This document shows positions 550 through 11,338 of a stretch of DNA of 64,000 bases, in pieces. How positions within the stretch are numbered: the stretch's first letter is position 1; every line of letters starts with the position of its first letter. Below the pieces are notes generated by a model. The model saw nothing but the letters and a program-made list of their open reading frames with translations. It was not told the origin of the DNA and did no database searches. The translations under genes and the position numbers were made by a program. Origin of the DNA: Candidatus Heimdallarchaeota archaeon (lineage in GTDB: Archaea > Asgardarchaeota > Heimdallarchaeia > JABLTI01); NCBI GenBank assembly GCA_018238155.1, contig JABCTZ010000007.1:130896-194895 (forward strand), written 5' to 3'.

Positions 550-1410
550 CTAGTATTTTCTTTTCTTTTTACTAGCATTTACTTCTTTTCTTAGCGTATT
601 TAGTTTCTTTTCTAGTTCTCTTCTATTTTCTCGGAGATTTCTTAATGTACCAATTAAAACCCCCTCGAGAGTAAATACTTCAGCATTTTCAAAATCAATT
701 GCATCTCTCATTAGTACTATCGTTCTAAAATACTCGCTATCTATAGAATATCCTTCGATATATCTGTTAAATGGGGGAATAATAATATGAATTCTATCCG
801 GTTTTCCTTCTAAAATATTCAACCATTTTGCTTTTACCCAAACCTTTTGAGTTATTTTAGAGCCTATTTCATCACGAAAGGTATACGCAGGATGAGCATG
901 AGCAGAAATAGTTATGTCAGCAGTCCATACATCTAATGCAGGTGATGCATGCCCATGCCAAAGACCGATTGATTTATTTGTTTCTTTTTGCGTTAATCGA
1001 AATCCTTCAGCTTGAATAAGATTGATTTCTTCGGGAATGACTTCTTCAATTTTTCCATCATGATTTCCTTTTACTATTATTACATTTGTTTTTTTCACTA
1101 ATCGTTTAAGAAACTTCCAAATTCTTCCTGCAATTGGGTGTGGTGTTCCATAAATAGCGTCTTTAAAATCACCTAGAAATATTAACGTGTCCGGTTTTTT
1201 TTCATCAAGTAACCGAATGATATCATCTTCTGGTCGTTTTGATTCTGGAAGAATGATTCCTTTTTTGTTTCTTCCATAAACATAACCAATGTGTAAATCA
1301 GAAACAATTAATGTTTTATTCATTTCCTTTTCATTAAACATTATTGCAGGTATCCCTGGAATAATTATTGAATTAGATTGCCCTTTCTTCTCATTGATGG
1401 ACTTGGTCAT
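550..1410 (-). CDS. Calcineurin-like metallophosphoesterase
   Basis: Motifs SDLHIG, LGDFKD, KGNHD, WHGH, AHAHP. Confidence 0.85.
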   Translation of the reverse strand: MTKSINEKKGQSNSIIIPGIPAIMFNEKEMNKTLIVSDLHIGYVYGRNKKGIILPESKRPEDDIIRLLDEKKPDTLIFLGDFKDAIYGTPHPIAGRIWKFLKRLVKKTNVIIVKGNHDGKIEEVIPEEINLIQAEGFRLTQKETNKSIGLWHGHASPALDVWTADITISAHAHPAYTFRDEIGSKITQKVWVKAKWLNILEGKPDRIHIIIPPFNRYIEGYSIDSEYFRTIVLMRDAIDFENAEVFTLEGVLIGTLRNLRENRRELEKKLNTLRKEVNASKKKRKY

Positions 1411-1459: not shown

Positions 1460-2521
1460 TTAAAAGATTGCAACAAGTTTCACAAATAGAAAATCGATTA
1501 ATAACTCTAAACTTTCACGTGTAATTCCTGTTACAAAGAAAAATTCTGTTAGTTTTTTTCCATCTAATTCTTTTCCAATTATGCATTCTATCCATTCTCC
1601 ATGTGTTTCTTTGAAAATAGCAATTTGGTTTGCAATTTCTTCGCTCTTAAATTCGGATATGGTATATGATTCCATTGCAACTAGATATTGCGAGAAAGGC
1701 ATGTAATAGCGAATATCCACATCCTCAAGTAGCAATCTATCTAAAAATTCCAAACAAGATATTATTCTATTCTCTTTATTTGAGAAATCAATTACAACAT
1801 CTAAAATTCTTGATAATATATCTAATCCAATTTGCAAGTTATCTGGAATTCTTCTTTGGACTATAACTTCAATTCGCGTTTTTTCTGTAGAAATACTTAT
1901 TTCCTTATGAGAAAAATCTTCTTTTGACTCAAAAAATGCTTCTTTGCTTGCAATAGAAAGGCTATAGTTTGATTGTTTCAAAGAAATGATTACTTTTTGA
2001 AACACATTAAATTTTTCACTAACTAGTAAACGTGATGTTTCTTGTTTCGGAATAATTTCACTTTGAGTCTTAATCTTTGGTTTCCTTTCTTGTAGTGAAA
2101 CAATTTCATTGTTACTTAATTTGCTTGGAAGTATGAAATTAGCGATTGAAGTTAATAACCCATTTAACATCTTAAAATATGGTCTATTATTACTTCTTTT
2201 TTTACTTGTAGAAATAAGCACATCTAATATTTTCTCTGCCTCAATCAAATCTATAGCTGGTTGAGCTATTAATCCTAATCCAAACTGTCTTTTCTTTCTG
2301 GGGAAATTTGGATCATCTAAAGAAATAGCTTTTGCGAATGCAGTTTTATTTCCAACTTTTCGAACAGAGAACTCATTTGCTCTTATTATCCACATTAGTA
2401 AATTTTCATTACTTGTAACATTTGGAATTTGAAAATTCTTTGGATTTTTATTTCGTATAACCGGTCCTTTTAGCGAATCAAATTCAACAAGAATTATGCC
2501 CAACTTTGTACTTTTTATCAT
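1460..2521 (-). CDS. Longin/uDENN-like domain protein (folliculin/NPRL-type N-terminus)
   Basis: N-terminal ILVEFDSLKGPVI and LDDPNFPRKKRQFGLGLI resemble the F-D-x3-GP and D-P-x-x-R...R-x-(F/Y) motifs of uDENN/folliculin longins. Co-oriented 48 bp downstream of a GTPase-roadblock gene. Confidence 0.55.
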   Translation of the reverse strand: MIKSTKLGIILVEFDSLKGPVIRNKNPKNFQIPNVTSNENLLMWIIRANEFSVRKVGNKTAFAKAISLDDPNFPRKKRQFGLGLIAQPAIDLIEAEKILDVLISTSKKRSNNRPYFKMLNGLLTSIANFILPSKLSNNEIVSLQERKPKIKTQSEIIPKQETSRLLVSEKFNVFQKVIISLKQSNYSLSIASKEAFFESKEDFSHKEISISTEKTRIEVIVQRRIPDNLQIGLDILSRILDVVIDFSNKENRIISCLEFLDRLLLEDVDIRYYMPFSQYLVAMESYTISEFKSEEIANQIAIFKETHGEWIECIIGKELDGKKLTEFFFVTGITRESLELLIDFLFVKLVAIF

Positions 2522-2569
2522 AAACTACACCCAAATCTAATTTAATGTTTTTTTTATTTGCTCTTTTCA

Positions 2570-3529
2570 TTAAATCTTATAGTCATTATAAGCATCTCTC
2601 AAATGTTCTAACCCTGTGCGATTTATGATTCTCGACATTCCCATTTGTGTTTTTGGAAATCCAATTAAAAGTGCTAAATAATCATCTTTTGAACAATTAA
2701 TTCTAGATACAATACTATAATTTGACTCGTCCTCATCCTCAAGTACAATAATCTTTATTCCTCCAACTTCCAAATCTGTTTGGAAGTCTTCAATAGCAGA
2801 GAAAATTTTCGCTACATAAGCAGCAAAAACGGTGGAATTTTCTACTCCTGTAAATGATTCACCAATGAGTAATCCATTTGGGTCTGTTATAAGAACGATT
2901 TTTGCATTTGTTTGCTTTCGAACCCATTCAGCTAATTTATCAAAACTGATTCTATTTATGCCAACATGTTTAGCAATAACTTTAACAAATGGCTCATGAA
3001 TTGTTTCAGGATTATGAAGTGTAGTCTCAAATATCTTGAATTGATAAATAACACTTGGGAAAAGATGTTCTAAAGGGTCAAGAATTTGTTTTTTGATGGT
3101 TAACCCATTTTCCGCTTCTTCTAGGTCTTGTTTATGAGCTAAAAGTAGAAAGTTTTTACATTCAGGGGAAAGCTGCATTAAATCTTCAATTGATCTTTGT
3201 AGTTCTTCTCTAGCTTCATTTATTCTTTCAATCTCAGATGAATCCACAACAAAAATAAATGTGCTAACATTTTCAAAGTACTCGTTTTTCATCGTCCCAT
3301 GAAATTCTCTTAATCGTAAATCTTCTTGTCCTGGTGGAATGAAAAAAATATATTTCTTTTTTAAGAATATTTTTTCTGAAATCTCGAGATCTTTACTAGG
3401 TGTTCTTCTTTGAGCAGCTTCAATTGGGATATATTTCATTATATCTTGAACTGAACTTTTCCCTGCATTATCTAATCCCGCAATTAGAACTTTCTCAATT
3501 ACCATCTCCAATTCTTGCTCTGTTTGCAT
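2570..3529 (-). CDS. Rag/Arf-like small GTPase fused to a C-terminal roadblock domain
   Basis: G1 GLDNAGKSS, degenerate G3 IPPGQ, FVVDSS, G4 HKQD. C-terminal VLITDPNGLLIGES is roadblock-like. Confidence 0.75.
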   Translation of the reverse strand: MQTEQELEMVIEKVLIAGLDNAGKSSVQDIMKYIPIEAAQRRTPSKDLEISEKIFLKKKYIFFIPPGQEDLRLREFHGTMKNEYFENVSTFIFVVDSSEIERINEAREELQRSIEDLMQLSPECKNFLLLAHKQDLEEAENGLTIKKQILDPLEHLFPSVIYQFKIFETTLHNPETIHEPFVKVIAKHVGINRISFDKLAEWVRKQTNAKIVLITDPNGLLIGESFTGVENSTVFAAYVAKIFSAIEDFQTDLEVGGIKIIVLEDEDESNYSIVSRINCSKDDYLALLIGFPKTQMGMSRIINRTGLEHLRDAYNDYKI

Positions 3530-4043
3530 AAGGAATCAATCTCATTTACTTTGGATTTTTCTTTTACCATTAAATCATGAATAATTGATTTTTTGTTAAT
3601 GTTAAAGAATACTATAATTTAATTCAGATTAAAGCATTAAAAAACCACGAATTTATTTTTCATATAATAGAAAAATTTTTGTAGGAGTTAATATACTCGA
3701 ATATTGCTAAATTATAAATCATATACAGAAAGCAATCATTTCAACATGAATCAAAAAAACAGGAATATTATCTTTGAACTTAATAAAAACACTTTTTTGT
3801 AAAGGATGTATTACGGTTAGACTATTTAACGTTAAAACCATGTTGCATTATCAATAATGATAACTTATTGACAAAAAGTAGATAAAAGAATTGACAAAAT
3901 GGCGTTTCTTGCATAAGATTTAAAAGATAAAAGTTTCCGCATTGATTTCATTGCTCTTCCAGCTAAAAAGTAGCACACTTCATGATTATATTTTTGACAT
4001 GAAAAGATAGCCTTAGAAGACCGTATCAGCGAGGATAAACTGA

Positions 4044-7000
4044 ATGTCTGAGACCGAAAAAATAACAATTGAGGATAGATGGGTTCTTATTGAATCAATG
4101 GTTAAGGAACTTGGCCTTGTACGACAGCATCTGGATAGTTATAATGAATTTATTCAAAATGGGATGCAAAATGTTGTAAAAGAAATTGGTAGTATTAAGC
4201 CTGAAATTCCTAATTATTATGTAAAGATCAATAAAATCGATATGGATCCTCCCAATATACGAGAAGCTGATGGATCATTAAATAATATTTTTCCAAGTGA
4301 AGCTCGAATAAGAAATCTAACATACACAGCACCATTATATCTCGATATGACTCCAATTCGAGTTGATGAAGCTGGTAACGAAATTCCAAGAGAAACTTCT
4401 AGAGTATTTGTTGGTCGTATGCCAATTATGCTCAAATCTAAAGTTTGCCCTCTTAGTAGAATGACGAAAGAGGAGTTAATAAAAGCCGGTGAAGATCCTA
4501 ATGATCCTGGTGGATATTTTGTCATTAATGGCAGTGAAAGGGTTCTAGTAACTCAAGAAGATTTAGCTCCAAATCGTATTTTGATTGAGAAGAAAACTGG
4601 TAGCGTAACAAGTATGGCTAAAGTGTTCAGCACAGCTCAAGGTGTGCGCGCACCTGTCACTATGGAACGCTCTCGAGATGGTAGTTTAAACGTTAGTTTT
4701 CCATCCGTTCCTAGAAAAATTCCTTTTGTTGTACTTATGAAAGCTTTAGGCTTATCTTCCGATAAAGCAATTGTAGAAGCAGTTTCAGATAAAACTGATG
4801 TTCGGAAAGAATTAATTCCATCATTGGATGAAGCCTCAGAGGTTAGTGATGAAGATAGAGCTCTTGATTTTATTGGCAAACGAGTTGCTGTAGGTCAAAC
4901 AATTGATTATCGAATTAAAAGAGCTCGTGAAATATTAAATCGATATTTACTCAGACATATTGGGACGAAAGAAGAACATAGATTTGGTAAAGCATTCTTT
5001 CTCGGTCAAATGGCACAACGTTTACTCGAGCTTGAATTAGATAAGCGTGAGGAAGATGATAAAGATCATTATTCAAATAAAAGGCTTAAACTCTCTGGAG
5101 AATCACTTATTTCTCTATTCAGAGTAGCTTTTATGAGCTTATGCCGAGATATTAAATATCAACTCGAAAGAACAGCTGTACGTGGTAGAACACCTAACAT
5201 TAGAACTGCTGTAAGAGCTGATGTTATTACTGAAAGATTAAGACATGCCCTAGCAACTGGTAATTGGGTAGGTGGAAAAGCTGGAGTTAGTCAATTACTT
5301 AATAGAACTAATTACCTCTCAACTCTGAGTCATTTGAGAAGAGTTGTAAGTCCATTAAGTCGAAACCAACCTCATTTTGAAGCAAGAGATTTGCATCCAA
5401 CTCACTTCGGTAAGATATGTCCAAGTGAAACACCTGAAGGACCAAATTGTGGTTTAGTAAAGAATCTTGCATTAGATGCTTACATCAGTGTTGGGACAAA
5501 TGAAAAAAACATTGAAGATTTCCTTTATACTCTTGGTTTAAATAAACTACAAAACTTACAATCAACTGATTCAACAAAAATATTTCTTAATGGTCGCTTA
5601 CTAGGCTCACATCCAGATCCTAAGGGATTTGTTAATGATGTCCGAAAAGCGCGGAGAAAAAATTTGATTAGTTCTGAAGTTAATATCAACTTTTATGATG
5701 ATATTCAAGAAGTTCAAGTTAACAGTGATCATGGTAGAGTAAGAAGACCAATTATTGTTATTGACAAAGGAAAGATTAAACTTGATAAAAAACATGTTGA
5801 AAAGATCACTTCAGGTGCTTGGAGTTGGCATGATTTAATTCAAAGAGGAATTCTAGAATACATTGATGCAGAAGAAGAAGAGAGTGCCTATATTGCTATG
5901 CAAATAGAGGATTTAGAAAAAGATACTGGTCATACACATTTAGAGATTGCTCCAAGTTCAATTTTAGGTATTTGTGCTTCACTTATTCCTTTTGCTGAGC
6001 ATAATCAATCTCCAAGAAACACTTACGAGTCTGCAATGGCTAAACAAGCATTAGGTATGTATGCTGCAAATTATCGAATAAGAGTTGACACTCGATCTCA
6101 CATTCTCTTTTATTCCCAGAAACCACTTGTTAAAACTCATGGAATGGACATTATCAATTTTGATAAACGTCCCGCAGGGCAAAACGTGGTAATAGCTTTA
6201 TTGAGCTATGAAGGCTATAATATGGAAGATGCAATCATTTTCAATAAACAATCAATTGAACGTGGATTAGCTAGATCAGCTTTCTTCAGACGATATGAAG
6301 CAGAAGAACGACGATATCCCGCAGGTCAAGAAGATAAATTTGAGCGTATGAGTAAAGAAGTCAGAGGCTTTAGACCACCTGAAGCATATGTTCATTTAAG
6401 TTCTGATGGTATTGTTGAACCAGAAAGTCAACTTAAAGGCGATCAAGTACTTATTGGTAGAACTTCTCCACCAAGATTTCTTGAAGAATATAGTGAATTT
6501 GAAGTACGTGCTCCAATTAGACATGAAACCAGTATTAGTATGCGTCATAGTGAAGAAGGGTTTGTCGATACTGTTATCTTAACCGAAACAAGCGATGGTA
6601 ATCGTTTAGTTAAAGTTAAGATGAGAGATATGCGCATTCCTGAATTGGGTGATAAGTTTGCTTCACGACATGGACAAAAAGGCGTAATTGGTTTAATCGC
6701 ACCCCCCGAAGACTTACCATTTACTTCTGAAGGGATCGTTCCTGATATTATTGTTAATTGCCATGCTATACCTTCAAGAATGACCATTGGTCAAATTCTT
6801 GAGACTATGGCTGCAGTGTACGGAACAAAAATAGGCACAGTGGTTGATGCAACACCTTTTGAAGGAATTCCTTCCGATTATTTAGTTCAAGAAATGAAAA
6901 AATTAGGCTTGAACTATTATGGAAAACAAGCAATGTATAATGGCATTACAGGTAGAAAATATGATGTTGATATTTTCATGGGTATTGCTTATTATCAAAA

Positions 7001-7385
7001 ACTTCACCATTTAGTAAAGGATAAAACTCATGCTCGTGCAAGAGGTCCTGTCCAAATTCTCACAAGGCAACCAACAGAGGGTCGTGCAAGAGAAGGTGGT
7101 TTGCGATTTGGTGAAATGGAACGTGATTGTTTAGTAGGACATGGAGCAGCTTTGCTCCTGAAAGAGCGTTTACTTGAAGAATCAGATAAAACGAACATCA
7201 ACGTTTGTGGTAACTGTGGAGTAATCGCGACTTATGATAGAAACAGAGACAAATACCTTTGTCCAATATGCAAAGGTGAGTCTGAAGTATCAAATGTAGT
7301 GATGAGCTATGCATTCAAATTGCTTTTACAAGAACTAACATCTCTTGGAATGGCTCCAAAATTAATATTAAAGGATATGGCTTAG
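4044..7385 (+). CDS. rpoB: DNA-directed RNA polymerase subunit B (Rpo2), unsplit
   Basis: GDKFASRHGQKG, TRQPTEGRAREGGLRFGEMERD, C-terminal Zn ribbon; 1113 aa. Confidence 0.99.
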   Translation: MSETEKITIEDRWVLIESMVKELGLVRQHLDSYNEFIQNGMQNVVKEIGSIKPEIPNYYVKINKIDMDPPNIREADGSLNNIFPSEARIRNLTYTAPLYLDMTPIRVDEAGNEIPRETSRVFVGRMPIMLKSKVCPLSRMTKEELIKAGEDPNDPGGYFVINGSERVLVTQEDLAPNRILIEKKTGSVTSMAKVFSTAQGVRAPVTMERSRDGSLNVSFPSVPRKIPFVVLMKALGLSSDKAIVEAVSDKTDVRKELIPSLDEASEVSDEDRALDFIGKRVAVGQTIDYRIKRAREILNRYLLRHIGTKEEHRFGKAFFLGQMAQRLLELELDKREEDDKDHYSNKRLKLSGESLISLFRVAFMSLCRDIKYQLERTAVRGRTPNIRTAVRADVITERLRHALATGNWVGGKAGVSQLLNRTNYLSTLSHLRRVVSPLSRNQPHFEARDLHPTHFGKICPSETPEGPNCGLVKNLALDAYISVGTNEKNIEDFLYTLGLNKLQNLQSTDSTKIFLNGRLLGSHPDPKGFVNDVRKARRKNLISSEVNINFYDDIQEVQVNSDHGRVRRPIIVIDKGKIKLDKKHVEKITSGAWSWHDLIQRGILEYIDAEEEESAYIAMQIEDLEKDTGHTHLEIAPSSILGICASLIPFAEHNQSPRNTYESAMAKQALGMYAANYRIRVDTRSHILFYSQKPLVKTHGMDIINFDKRPAGQNVVIALLSYEGYNMEDAIIFNKQSIERGLARSAFFRRYEAEERRYPAGQEDKFERMSKEVRGFRPPEAYVHLSSDGIVEPESQLKGDQVLIGRTSPPRFLEEYSEFEVRAPIRHETSISMRHSEEGFVDTVILTETSDGNRLVKVKMRDMRIPELGDKFASRHGQKGVIGLIAPPEDLPFTSEGIVPDIIVNCHAIPSRMTIGQILETMAAVYGTKIGTVVDATPFEGIPSDYLVQEMKKLGLNYYGKQAMYNGITGRKYDVDIFMGIAYYQKLHHLVKDKTHARARGPVQILTRQPTEGRAREGGLRFGEMERDCLVGHGAALLLKERLLEESDKTNINVCGNCGVIATYDRNRDKYLCPICKGESEVSNVVMSYAFKLLLQELTSLGMAPKLILKDMA

Positions 7386-7398
7386 GAGGAAAAAAAGG

Positions 7399-11338
<3,940 letters not shown>

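Follow-up and report, generated by a model that had tools for sequence, protein, structure and literature searches.

Do the two neighbouring genes at positions 1460 to 3529 of the DNA analysed here encode a small GTPase and a protein that regulates it? The DNA is a window of 64,000 nt, the whole stretch that was analysed, from contig JABCTZ010000007.1 of Candidatus Heimdallarchaeota archaeon, and positions given without a further label are those of this whole window. In eukaryotes, Rag GTPases and longin-domain GTPase-activating proteins (GAPs), among them GATOR1 and folliculin, control lysosomal nutrient signalling. A Gly-Pro (GP) motif at the start of strand beta-2, beside the arginine finger, has been described in FLCN, NPRL2, SMCR8, and C9orf72; it is not found in non-GAP longins, is present in some Heimdall longins, and has led to the question of which GTPases partner the GP-motif longins of Asgard archaea (PMC12290439). 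NPRL2-like proteins have been reported from Thor and a few Loki metagenome-assembled genomes (MAGs) and FLCN-like proteins from Heimdall, as has an operon that encodes a roadblock protein together with a Rab-like GTPase (explicitly non-Rag) and a DENN protein (Liu et al., bioRxiv 10.1101/2020.10.19.343400). Rag-like GTPases, too, are known from Asgard archaea. The GTPases of MK-D1 lie generally outside operons with longin or roadblock genes, which makes their partners hard to assign (Tran et al., PMC10933270). In the literature searched, the component proteins are described, the pairing of a GTPase gene with a longin gene is not reported, and no GTPase partner is named for the Heimdallarchaeia FLCN/SMCR8-type longins.

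The locus holds a Rag-architecture GTPase with an MglA-like G3 motif, conserved beside a single-chain, predicted tandem-longin protein of the folliculin/NPRL2 class, and the two make up a plausible GTPase-regulator pair. The conserved pair is a concrete candidate answer to the question of which GTPase a GP-motif longin partners; it bears on whether longins already acted as arginine-finger GAPs before eukaryotes arose, and on the workings of a GTPase without a G3 aspartate. Both proteins are small and soluble, and are therefore amenable to expression, mixing, and assay.

Organization of the Gene Pair

The two co-oriented genes described in the initial annotation, 48 bp apart, correspond exactly to entries in the list of open reading frames (ORFs):

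2570-3529, minus strand: GTPase gene, 319 aa (ORF list)
2522-2569, minus strand: spacer between the GTPase and longin genes, 48 bp, A-rich, without a T-run (sequence read)
1460-2521, minus strand: tandem-longin gene, 353 aa (ORF list)

Both ORFs are genuine genes, with orthologue identities across genomes of 59-91% for the GTPase and 38-80% for the longin protein. A Shine-Dalgarno-like GGGTG lies 8 nt ahead of the ATG of the longin gene, and a gap of 49 bp, likewise without a T-run and with a strong AAGGAGG ribosome-binding site ahead of the next ATG, separates the longin gene from a third co-oriented gene, which encodes a metallophosphoesterase. The short gaps, the Shine-Dalgarno-like sequences, and the lack of a T-run fit a single transcript, suggesting that the GTPase and longin genes, and with them the third gene, would be co-transcribed.

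Conservation of the Pair in Two Lineages

In the Heimdall family, the order GTPase, longin, phosphoesterase is kept in 11 other genomes wherever the contig allows, including the most distant members of the family (38-43% identity). The flanks of these distant members are conserved too, with rpoB and rpoA' on one side and genes for a flavin adenine dinucleotide (FAD) protein, a peptidase A24, and DHDPS on the other.

A second lineage was reached through the Heimdall longin profile, which weakly matched the N-terminal part of proteins from another family. Across three further families, eight genomes have a gene for a GP-motif longin of 253-303 aa directly downstream of a gene for a GTPase of 320-338 aa, the intergenic gap being zero to a few bases or replaced by an overlap of the two genes. 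Four of the six second-lineage records obtained by the related-locus search are titled Njordarchaeota or Njordarchaeum, and these sequences are called Njord-type below. Their GTPases correspond to those of the Heimdall family: of four genomes tested, three gave reciprocal best matches and one a near tie, and the comparison started from the other side agreed. Of the four Njord-type GTPases scanned with Pfam, three match Gtr1_RagA best. The surroundings are different from those of the Heimdall family, in that an aIF2-gamma gene lies divergently upstream of the pair in four of five f21 genomes and, at the single Njord-type locus read downstream, the next gene is L15e-like and no phosphoesterase follows. 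A profile search with the Njord-type alignment returned two proteins only.

The two genes also occur together. In the phylum sample, the longin profile matched all 10 Heimdall family genomes and none of 65 genomes of other families of the same class. The GTPase profile matched 10 of 11 Heimdall family genomes, the remaining one being truncated there by the end of its contig, and, weakly, a single one of 69 elsewhere in the class. Some contigs that carry the pair are publicly labelled Zixibacteria, Bathyarchaeia, Thorarchaeota, Nitrososphaerota or Crenarchaeota, and such labels probably reflect mis-binned or mislabelled MAGs.

It might be supposed that the two genes have no functional link and are neighbours through inherited gene order alone, as the synteny of the whole Heimdall-family block, unrelated housekeeping genes included, would allow. 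The same order, with the genes nearly abutting, recurs in the three further families (named records Njordarchaeota) with both flanks different, however, and the genes share one phyletic pattern and are separated by short gaps with ribosome-binding sites and without a terminator-like T-run. Even allowing that the other Folliculin-type longins of this genome do not lie beside GTPases, and that MK-D1 GTPases are generally encoded outside operons with longin or roadblock genes (Tran et al., PMC10933270), we consider neighbourhood by descent alone very unlikely. Because two deep lineages keep the pair while its surroundings change, the comparison of gene orders supports the view that the GTPase and the longin protein act as a functional unit. 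The adjacency described in the initial annotation is present in every Heimdall family genome where the contig allows, as well as in the eight genomes in which the context is another.

A variant of the pair is found in G114 (family f26), where L098 carries the longin gene at 1240-2055 and the GTPase gene at 2064-3023, both on the minus strand; the GP turn is kept, the longin loop has no arginine, and the GTPase reads NKQD and ALPGQ. Here the pair may have degenerated or been rewired.

Fold of the Longin Protein

The 353-aa protein belongs to a narrow family. Its homologues number 47 proteins in 5.8 billion clusters, the named ones all being from Heimdall/Asgard MAGs or mislabelled MAGs, and phmmer against 1.8 billion representative proteins returned 12 clusters, all of its own family. 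It has no Pfam or NCBIfam match; the 23 Heimdall family longin proteins gave no match to Pfam at E <= 10, Folliculin (PF11704) and NPR2 (PF06218) included; the genome as a whole gave no Pfam NPR2 match; and no PDB sequence was matched by phmmer or by profile, with the full length or with the N-terminal domain alone. The following features bear on its class:

2126-2521, minus strand: N-terminal longin domain, GAP-type by structure and profile comparison, residues 1-132 (AlphaFold2 model)
2462-2467, minus strand: Gly19-Pro20 GP motif, ahead of strand beta-2 (alignment and DSSP on the model)
2279-2314, minus strand: loop D70-P-N-F-x-R75-K76-x-R78-Q-F-G81, candidate arginine finger R75 or R78
2039-2125, minus strand: variable low-confidence linker, residues 133-161 (predicted local distance difference test, pLDDT, <50 at 134-161)
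1721-2038, minus strand: second longin-like domain, residues about 162-267 (domain model and VIA-align)
1463-1720, minus strand: conserved C-terminal helical domain, residues 268-353 (high pLDDT, many invariant residues)

The longin-like N-terminus that the initial annotation had proposed is borne out by the AlphaFold2 model (23 sequences, pLDDT 80.8), in which residues 8-127 form the beta-beta-alpha-beta-beta-beta-alpha-alpha longin fold. VIA-align places NPRL2 first (8fw5_B, Z 10.7, root mean square deviation 3.4, 130 residues aligned), followed by Npr2 (8adl_S, Z 10.0), a Lokiarchaeal longin (8yqg_B, 9.7), FLCN (6nzd_H, 8.6), and generic longins at about 8. NPRL2 and Npr2 lead the other longins by just 1-2 Z units, so that the fold alone is insufficient to set the longin subclass. 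In the Foldseek comparison that had been suggested for this protein, with the whole model set against the PDB, the top seven matches are chains of the GATOR1/SEA complex (best 9o5a_H, E 1.7e-6; also 9v0j_A, 9o5d_D, 8adl_S, 9h4q_T, and 7t3a_B), which are read as NPRL2/Npr2 from their chain length (362-405 residues). NPR2 clusters likewise come first among the named matches in the structure atlas.

Beyond a linker that varies in length across the alignment, the whole-protein model shows a beta-rich and then a helical domain, and this C-terminal half folds confidently when modelled alone (pLDDT 91, predicted template modelling score 0.88). Residues 173-267 are matched by VIA-align to longin domains only (synbindin, SRX, VAMP7, Sec22, and C9orf72), with Z scores of 7.5-6 that stand at the noise limit of the tool, although the matches are consistently longin domains. 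For the C-terminal half as a whole, Foldseek found no PDB match below E 0.03 and the atlas matches are weak, while the last 85 residues have no convincing fold match by Foldseek or VIA-align. A DENN domain and an NPRL2-type C-terminus were both considered for this half and dropped, as neither turned up in these comparisons. The models thus describe the 353-aa protein as a predicted tandem-longin protein with a helical tail, and not as a longin joined to a DENN domain or to an NPRL2 C-terminal domain. The earlier description of the protein as folliculin-like can be retained for its first domain, which is of the folliculin/NPRL2 class, and not for what follows, where no DENN and no NPRL2 C-terminal domain is matched.

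Shorter homologues of 311 aa (P0040 to P0045) begin opposite position 46 of the 353-aa protein and are preceded by a gap of 160 bp (L048 4841-5000); their start codon has probably been called too late, with the loss of strand beta-1 and the GP motif.

GAP-Type Signature of the First Longin Domain

Gly19 and Pro20 are invariant in 24 Heimdall family members and in eight Njord-type sequences, and in the model, where strands run at residues 8-15 and 19-26, they open strand beta-2. The hairpin loop that follows is also conserved, with D70, P71, N72, R75, K76, R78, F80, and G81 invariant in the Heimdall family and a loop arginine kept in eight of nine aligned lineages. Besides the longin gene of the pair, the genome holds three other genes that pass Pfam Folliculin, and comparison was made with a set of 30 Heimdall longin domains that pass this model, all 30 of which carry the motifs [FL]D[DE]xxGP and ARGxxR. 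The R75/R78 loop aligns to the ARGGxR loop of these Folliculin-positive longins, the residue equivalence being uncertain by one position.

Profile comparison points in the same direction. With hhalign, the Heimdall family profile alone was not significantly related to single Folliculin-type paralogues, and against the 30 domains it scored 28.0 (P 5.5e-4, 124 collinear columns), compared with at most 17.4 in 30 shuffles. When the Njord-type sequences were joined to the family, the probability rose to 96.5% (E 7.7e-10, score 61.5, 128 columns), with a top score of 18.6 in forty column shuffles. One Njord-type longin orthologue itself passes Pfam Folliculin, at 23.4 bits against a cut-off of 23.3. 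Because of the shared motifs and of this profile homology to Folliculin-positive longins, the first longin domain is assigned, by sequence comparison, to the folliculin/NPRL2-type class.

Assemblies with several longin or roadblock domains include Mon1-Ccz1, Fuzzy-Inturned, TRAPP, Ragulator, and SRX-SRbeta. The two tandem longin-like domains and the helical domain of the 353-aa protein recall Mon1-Ccz1 and Fuzzy, and it has lower-scoring structural matches to the tri-longin exchange factors Mon1-Ccz1, CPLANE/Fuzzy, and BLOC-3, as well as to an atlas cluster that contains Fuz_longin_1 and Fuz_longin_2 (template modelling score 0.45 by query). The protein could bind the neighbouring GTPase without being its GAP, and serve instead for nucleotide exchange, as a scaffold or as an effector platform, exchange-factor activity being more typical of longins than GAP activity (PMC12290439) and the loop arginine being missing from one lineage. 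However, the proteins closest in structure to the N-terminal domain are GAP subunits, the GP motif that is reported missing from non-GAP longins is invariant, and the domain has profile homology to Folliculin-type longins; a partner of the non-GAP kind appears somewhat unlikely on this evidence.

The GTPase and Its Affinities

The GTPase combines a G domain with a predicted C-terminal roadblock domain, as in the Rags, and its features are as follows:

Residues 1-189 of the GTPase: G domain
3452-3478, minus strand: P-loop (G1) GLDNAGKSS, residues 18-26, invariant in 24 orthologues
3326-3340, minus strand: G3 IPPGQ, residues 64-68 (Arf1 and family alignments)
3125-3136, minus strand: G4 HKQD, residues 132-135, with H132, K133, and D135 invariant in 24 orthologues
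2573-2962, minus strand: predicted C-terminal roadblock domain, residues 190-319 (Robl_LC7 matches and 8yl2_A alignment)

An HKxD G4 motif is typical of Rags. Pfam scores the protein almost equally as Gtr1_RagA (PF04670; 56.8 bits, cut-off 22) and as Arf (57.0 bits), and SRPRB also matches it (31 bits). The Gtr1_RagA match runs over residues 13-218 and covers model positions 1-206 of 232, and all 24 GTPase orthologues match this model too. The roadblock model Robl_LC7 matches residues 205-264 weakly (E 0.0017, 18.5 bits against a cut-off of 23), and reaches E <= 0.01 in 21 of the 24 orthologues (best 4e-5). When the family profile is compared with the PDB, the best match is 8yl2_A, a "GTP-binding protein" of 342 residues that aligns over query residues 12-293 (E 2.2e-14) and spans the G domain and the C-terminal domain together, with Arf1 behind it at about 53 bits; a related PDB entry, 8zla, carries the title "monomeric Rag-like small GTPase from Asgard Lokiarchaeota". 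With the single sequence, phmmer scores Arf1 at 40.5 bits and RagA at 37 bits. A protein-language-model search with the roadblock part reached a top score of 0.82, which serves as a lead only. Compared with Arf1, switch II of the family is extended by an insert of some six residues, and an insert of this kind has been described for GTPase-roadblock architectures (Tran et al., 2024; PMC10933270). The invariant HKQD, the Robl_LC7 matches, and the full-length 8yl2_A alignment together support the Rag-type architecture, a G domain with HKxD fused to a C-terminal roadblock, that had been read from the sequence in the initial annotation.

The G3 aspartate is otherwise near-universal in GTPases. All 24 orthologues have Ile or Val where DxxGQ has its aspartate, giving IPPGQ or VPPGQ ("ffippgq" opposite "vwdvggq" in the Arf1 alignment), whereas the catalytic-type Gln68 is kept. 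It is likewise replaced in all Njord-type GTPases, which read VTPGQ, VFPGQ or ALPGQ and carry HKQD at G4 in seven of eight cases and NKQD in one. An arginine pair, R41-R42, is invariant in the Heimdall family 3-4 residues ahead of the G2 Ser45 (switch I Pro-Ser) and is not present in the Njord-type orthologues, which read TEPST there. Intrinsic arginine fingers are found in G-alpha and MglA, and by analogy R41-R42 could be one.

These traits suggest an alternative in which the GTPase is a self-contained MglA/MglB-like switch, whose hydrolysis would be driven by its fused roadblock domain (as a dimer) and R41/R42, with the longin protein as an effector or as the regulator of another GTPase. The missing G3 aspartate is a hallmark of the MglA family, which has Thr78 in its place (PMC3000849), whereas the replacing residue here is Ile or Val. 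The GAP of MglA is a roadblock protein that repositions intrinsic arginine and glutamine residues (PMC4316618). R41-R42 are invariant ahead of the switch I Pro-Ser in the Heimdall family, yet Njord-type orthologues without the two arginines (TEPST) still keep their longin partner. Among prokaryotic proteins, the MglA-like GTPases of archaea stand nearest to Arf, Sar, and SRbeta (PMC4316618), but Pfam and the PDB rank Arf, Rag, and the Asgard GTPase-roadblock proteins first, and MglA is not among the best 60 PDB matches. Other clients for the longin protein do exist, as the genome has a total of 26 Gtr1_RagA model matches; the adjacency of the two genes in two lineages would nevertheless be left unexplained, and a self-contained switch of this kind is considered unlikely.

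Within its own genome the paired GTPase ranks fourth against Gtr1_RagA, with 57.6 bits, behind three genes that score 113.8, 81.8, and 79.2 bits. In view of the Arf/Rag tie, the missing G3 aspartate, and this rank, the protein has the Rag architecture and yet is no clear Rag orthologue. Eukaryotic Rags are obligate heterodimers, of RagA/B with RagC/D, and the unit described here holds one GTPase gene only.

The first and third Gtr1_RagA matches of the genome are convergent genes on G000:C8, at about 10.4-13.5 kb, and a 1376-aa PKD-domain protein adjoins them:

L087 4425-5648, plus strand: Rag candidate, 407 aa, 112.5 bits against Gtr1_RagA
L087 5721-7466, minus strand: Rag candidate, 581 aa, 77.7 bits against Gtr1_RagA

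Judged by these profile scores, the two are much better Rag candidates than the paired GTPase.

Proposed Mechanism

The interpretation that we favour, with confidence and doubt about evenly balanced, is that the unit is a small-GTPase switch with a dedicated longin regulator that acts as a GAP. The first gene would provide a GTPase of Rag architecture, with a G domain of the Arf/Rag/MglA kind and a fused roadblock, and the second a dedicated regulator whose most likely role is that of a GAP, because its N-terminal longin is of the folliculin/NPRL2/SMCR8 class. The face of this longin that bears the Gly19-Pro20 turn would dock on the nucleotide pocket of the GTPase, and an arginine of the R75-K-x-R78 loop would be inserted beside the GTPase's own Gln68. 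In eukaryotes a partner longin is given in trans by FNIP, NPRL3 or C9orf72; here the second longin-like domain may act in cis as the partner longin, or it may alternatively pair with the roadblock domain of the GTPase. We infer in this way the binding of the two proteins, the GAP activity, the choice of catalytic arginine, and the roles of the later domains. A complex prediction with the GTPase and longin alignments, GTP, and Mg gave an ipSAE of 0.00 in both runs, for which the verdict of the tool is "no answer", and it counts neither way.

A number of observations weigh against a dedicated GAP. The Heimdall-family block is syntenic as a whole, unrelated genes included, so that adjacency in that family is weak evidence by itself. 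The match to the Folliculin-type longins becomes clear only once the Njord-type sequences join the profile, the alignment of the arginine loop is possibly off by one residue, and the Njord-type lineage G114 has no loop arginine at all (LNSYHQFS). The invariant R41-R42 of the Heimdall GTPases could, acting in cis, make a finger in trans unnecessary, and GAPs are a minority among longin and roadblock regulators, which mostly serve for nucleotide exchange or as scaffolds (PMC12290439).

Comparison with Known Systems

The closest comparison for a longin GAP with a roadblock-bearing client is that of NPRL2 (Npr2) in GATOR1/SEACIT acting on RagA/Gtr1. NPRL2 is the best structural match of the longin domain (Z 10.7 and 10.0; Foldseek E 1.7e-6) and has in common with it the Gly-Pro turn ahead of beta-2 and a loop with arginine that comes after the beta-hairpin. 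The presumed client, like RagA, has a G domain, a predicted roadblock domain, and an HKxD G4. The longin protein differs in that it has no Pfam NPR2 match and its C-terminal half is unlike the NPRL2 C-terminal domain, and the predicted operon has no counterpart of NPRL3 or DEPDC5. Its client also differs from RagA and RagC, being without the G3 aspartate and encoded singly, with no paralogue pair.

A further comparison is with folliculin (FLCN-FNIP) and the FLCN/SMCR8-type longins of Heimdallarchaeia; to the Heimdall longins that pass Pfam Folliculin, the longin protein is related by profile homology (96.5%) and by the common motifs FDxxGP and D..R..R. Folliculin has a DENN domain, in whose place the longin protein would have a second longin-like domain and a helical domain, and the Folliculin-positive paralogues of the same genome are encoded by separate genes that do not adjoin GTPases. 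Among Asgard proteins, the Rag-like GTPase-roadblock proteins of known structure (8yl2, 8zla) have the switch II insert and the HKxD G4 in common with the paired GTPase, and the paired GTPase aligns over its whole length to 8yl2_A, although 8yl2_A has the canonical DLGGQ where the paired GTPase has IPPGQ. The MK-D1 GTPases, whose genes as a rule share no operon with longin or roadblock genes (Tran et al., PMC10933270), differ in this respect from the conserved pairing seen here.

The locus can also be compared with bacterial and archaeal MglA and its roadblock GAP MglB. A G3 motif without aspartate (xxPGQ), an associated roadblock, and a regulator encoded beside the GTPase are common to both (PMC3000849, PMC4316618). 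The replacing residue, however, is Ile or Val and not Thr, G4 is HKQD, the roadblock is fused and not separate, the neighbouring gene encodes a longin of the GAP class and not MglB, and the sequence scores favour Arf and Rag.

The initial annotation had also put forward the pair as a possible forerunner of the Rag nutrient-sensing module. The G domain scores equally as Arf and as Rag, however, it lacks the G3 aspartate as MglA does, and three other genes of the genome match the Rag model better; since the family is, among the genomes searched, confined to one Heimdall family and Njord-type genomes, the forerunner idea amounts to speculation. In its fullest form, in which the pair would be a surviving minimal version of the machinery ancestral to the eukaryotic Rag-GATOR1/folliculin switch, with a single GTPase of Rag architecture and a single-chain two-longin GAP that presents an NPRL2/FLCN-like Gly-Pro/arginine face, it seems to us improbable. 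Were it true, both this mode of GAP action by longins and the pairing of such longins with GTPases that bear a roadblock would be older than eukaryotes.

Flanking Genes

The genes and spacer on either side of the pair in the window are the following:

550-1410, minus strand: metallophosphoesterase gene, third co-oriented gene, 286 aa (Pfam Metallophos, 1.1e-9)
3530-4043: AT-rich spacer of 514 bp between the divergent GTPase gene and rpoB (sequence read)
4044-7385, plus strand: rpoB, divergent from the GTPase gene
7399-10080, plus strand: rpoA'

Both divergent promoters are presumably located in the 514-bp spacer. The GTPase gene was described at the outset as divergent from the RNA polymerase operon, and rpoB does start at 4044; the position is nevertheless incidental, as the Njord-type pairs whose upstream flank is visible adjoin the aIF2-gamma gene instead.

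The metallophosphoesterase resembles the archaeal SbcD-related and PdeM-like enzymes (TIGR00024, 74.8 bits; TIGR04123, 56.4 bits; both below cut-off). Its gene is found downstream of the pair throughout the Heimdall family and is missing at the one Njord-type locus read downstream, on account of which it was dropped as a core part of the module and is regarded as a lineage-specific neighbour.

Other Folliculin-Type Longins of the Genome

None of the Folliculin-positive paralogues of the genome lies beside a GTPase gene, their neighbours encoding a response regulator, a TPR protein, a V4R protein, and a HerA-like ATPase. One of them, a longin of 232 aa on G000:C8 at about 71.9-73.4 kb, is followed 13 bp downstream by the gene for the V4R protein (Pfam V4R, 6.7e-10):

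L085 5695-6393, minus strand: 232-aa Folliculin-positive longin gene
L085 4935-5681, minus strand: V4R-domain protein gene

V4R belongs to the same superfamily as TRAPPC3/Bet3, and these two neighbours could be a longin plus TRAPP-like pair.

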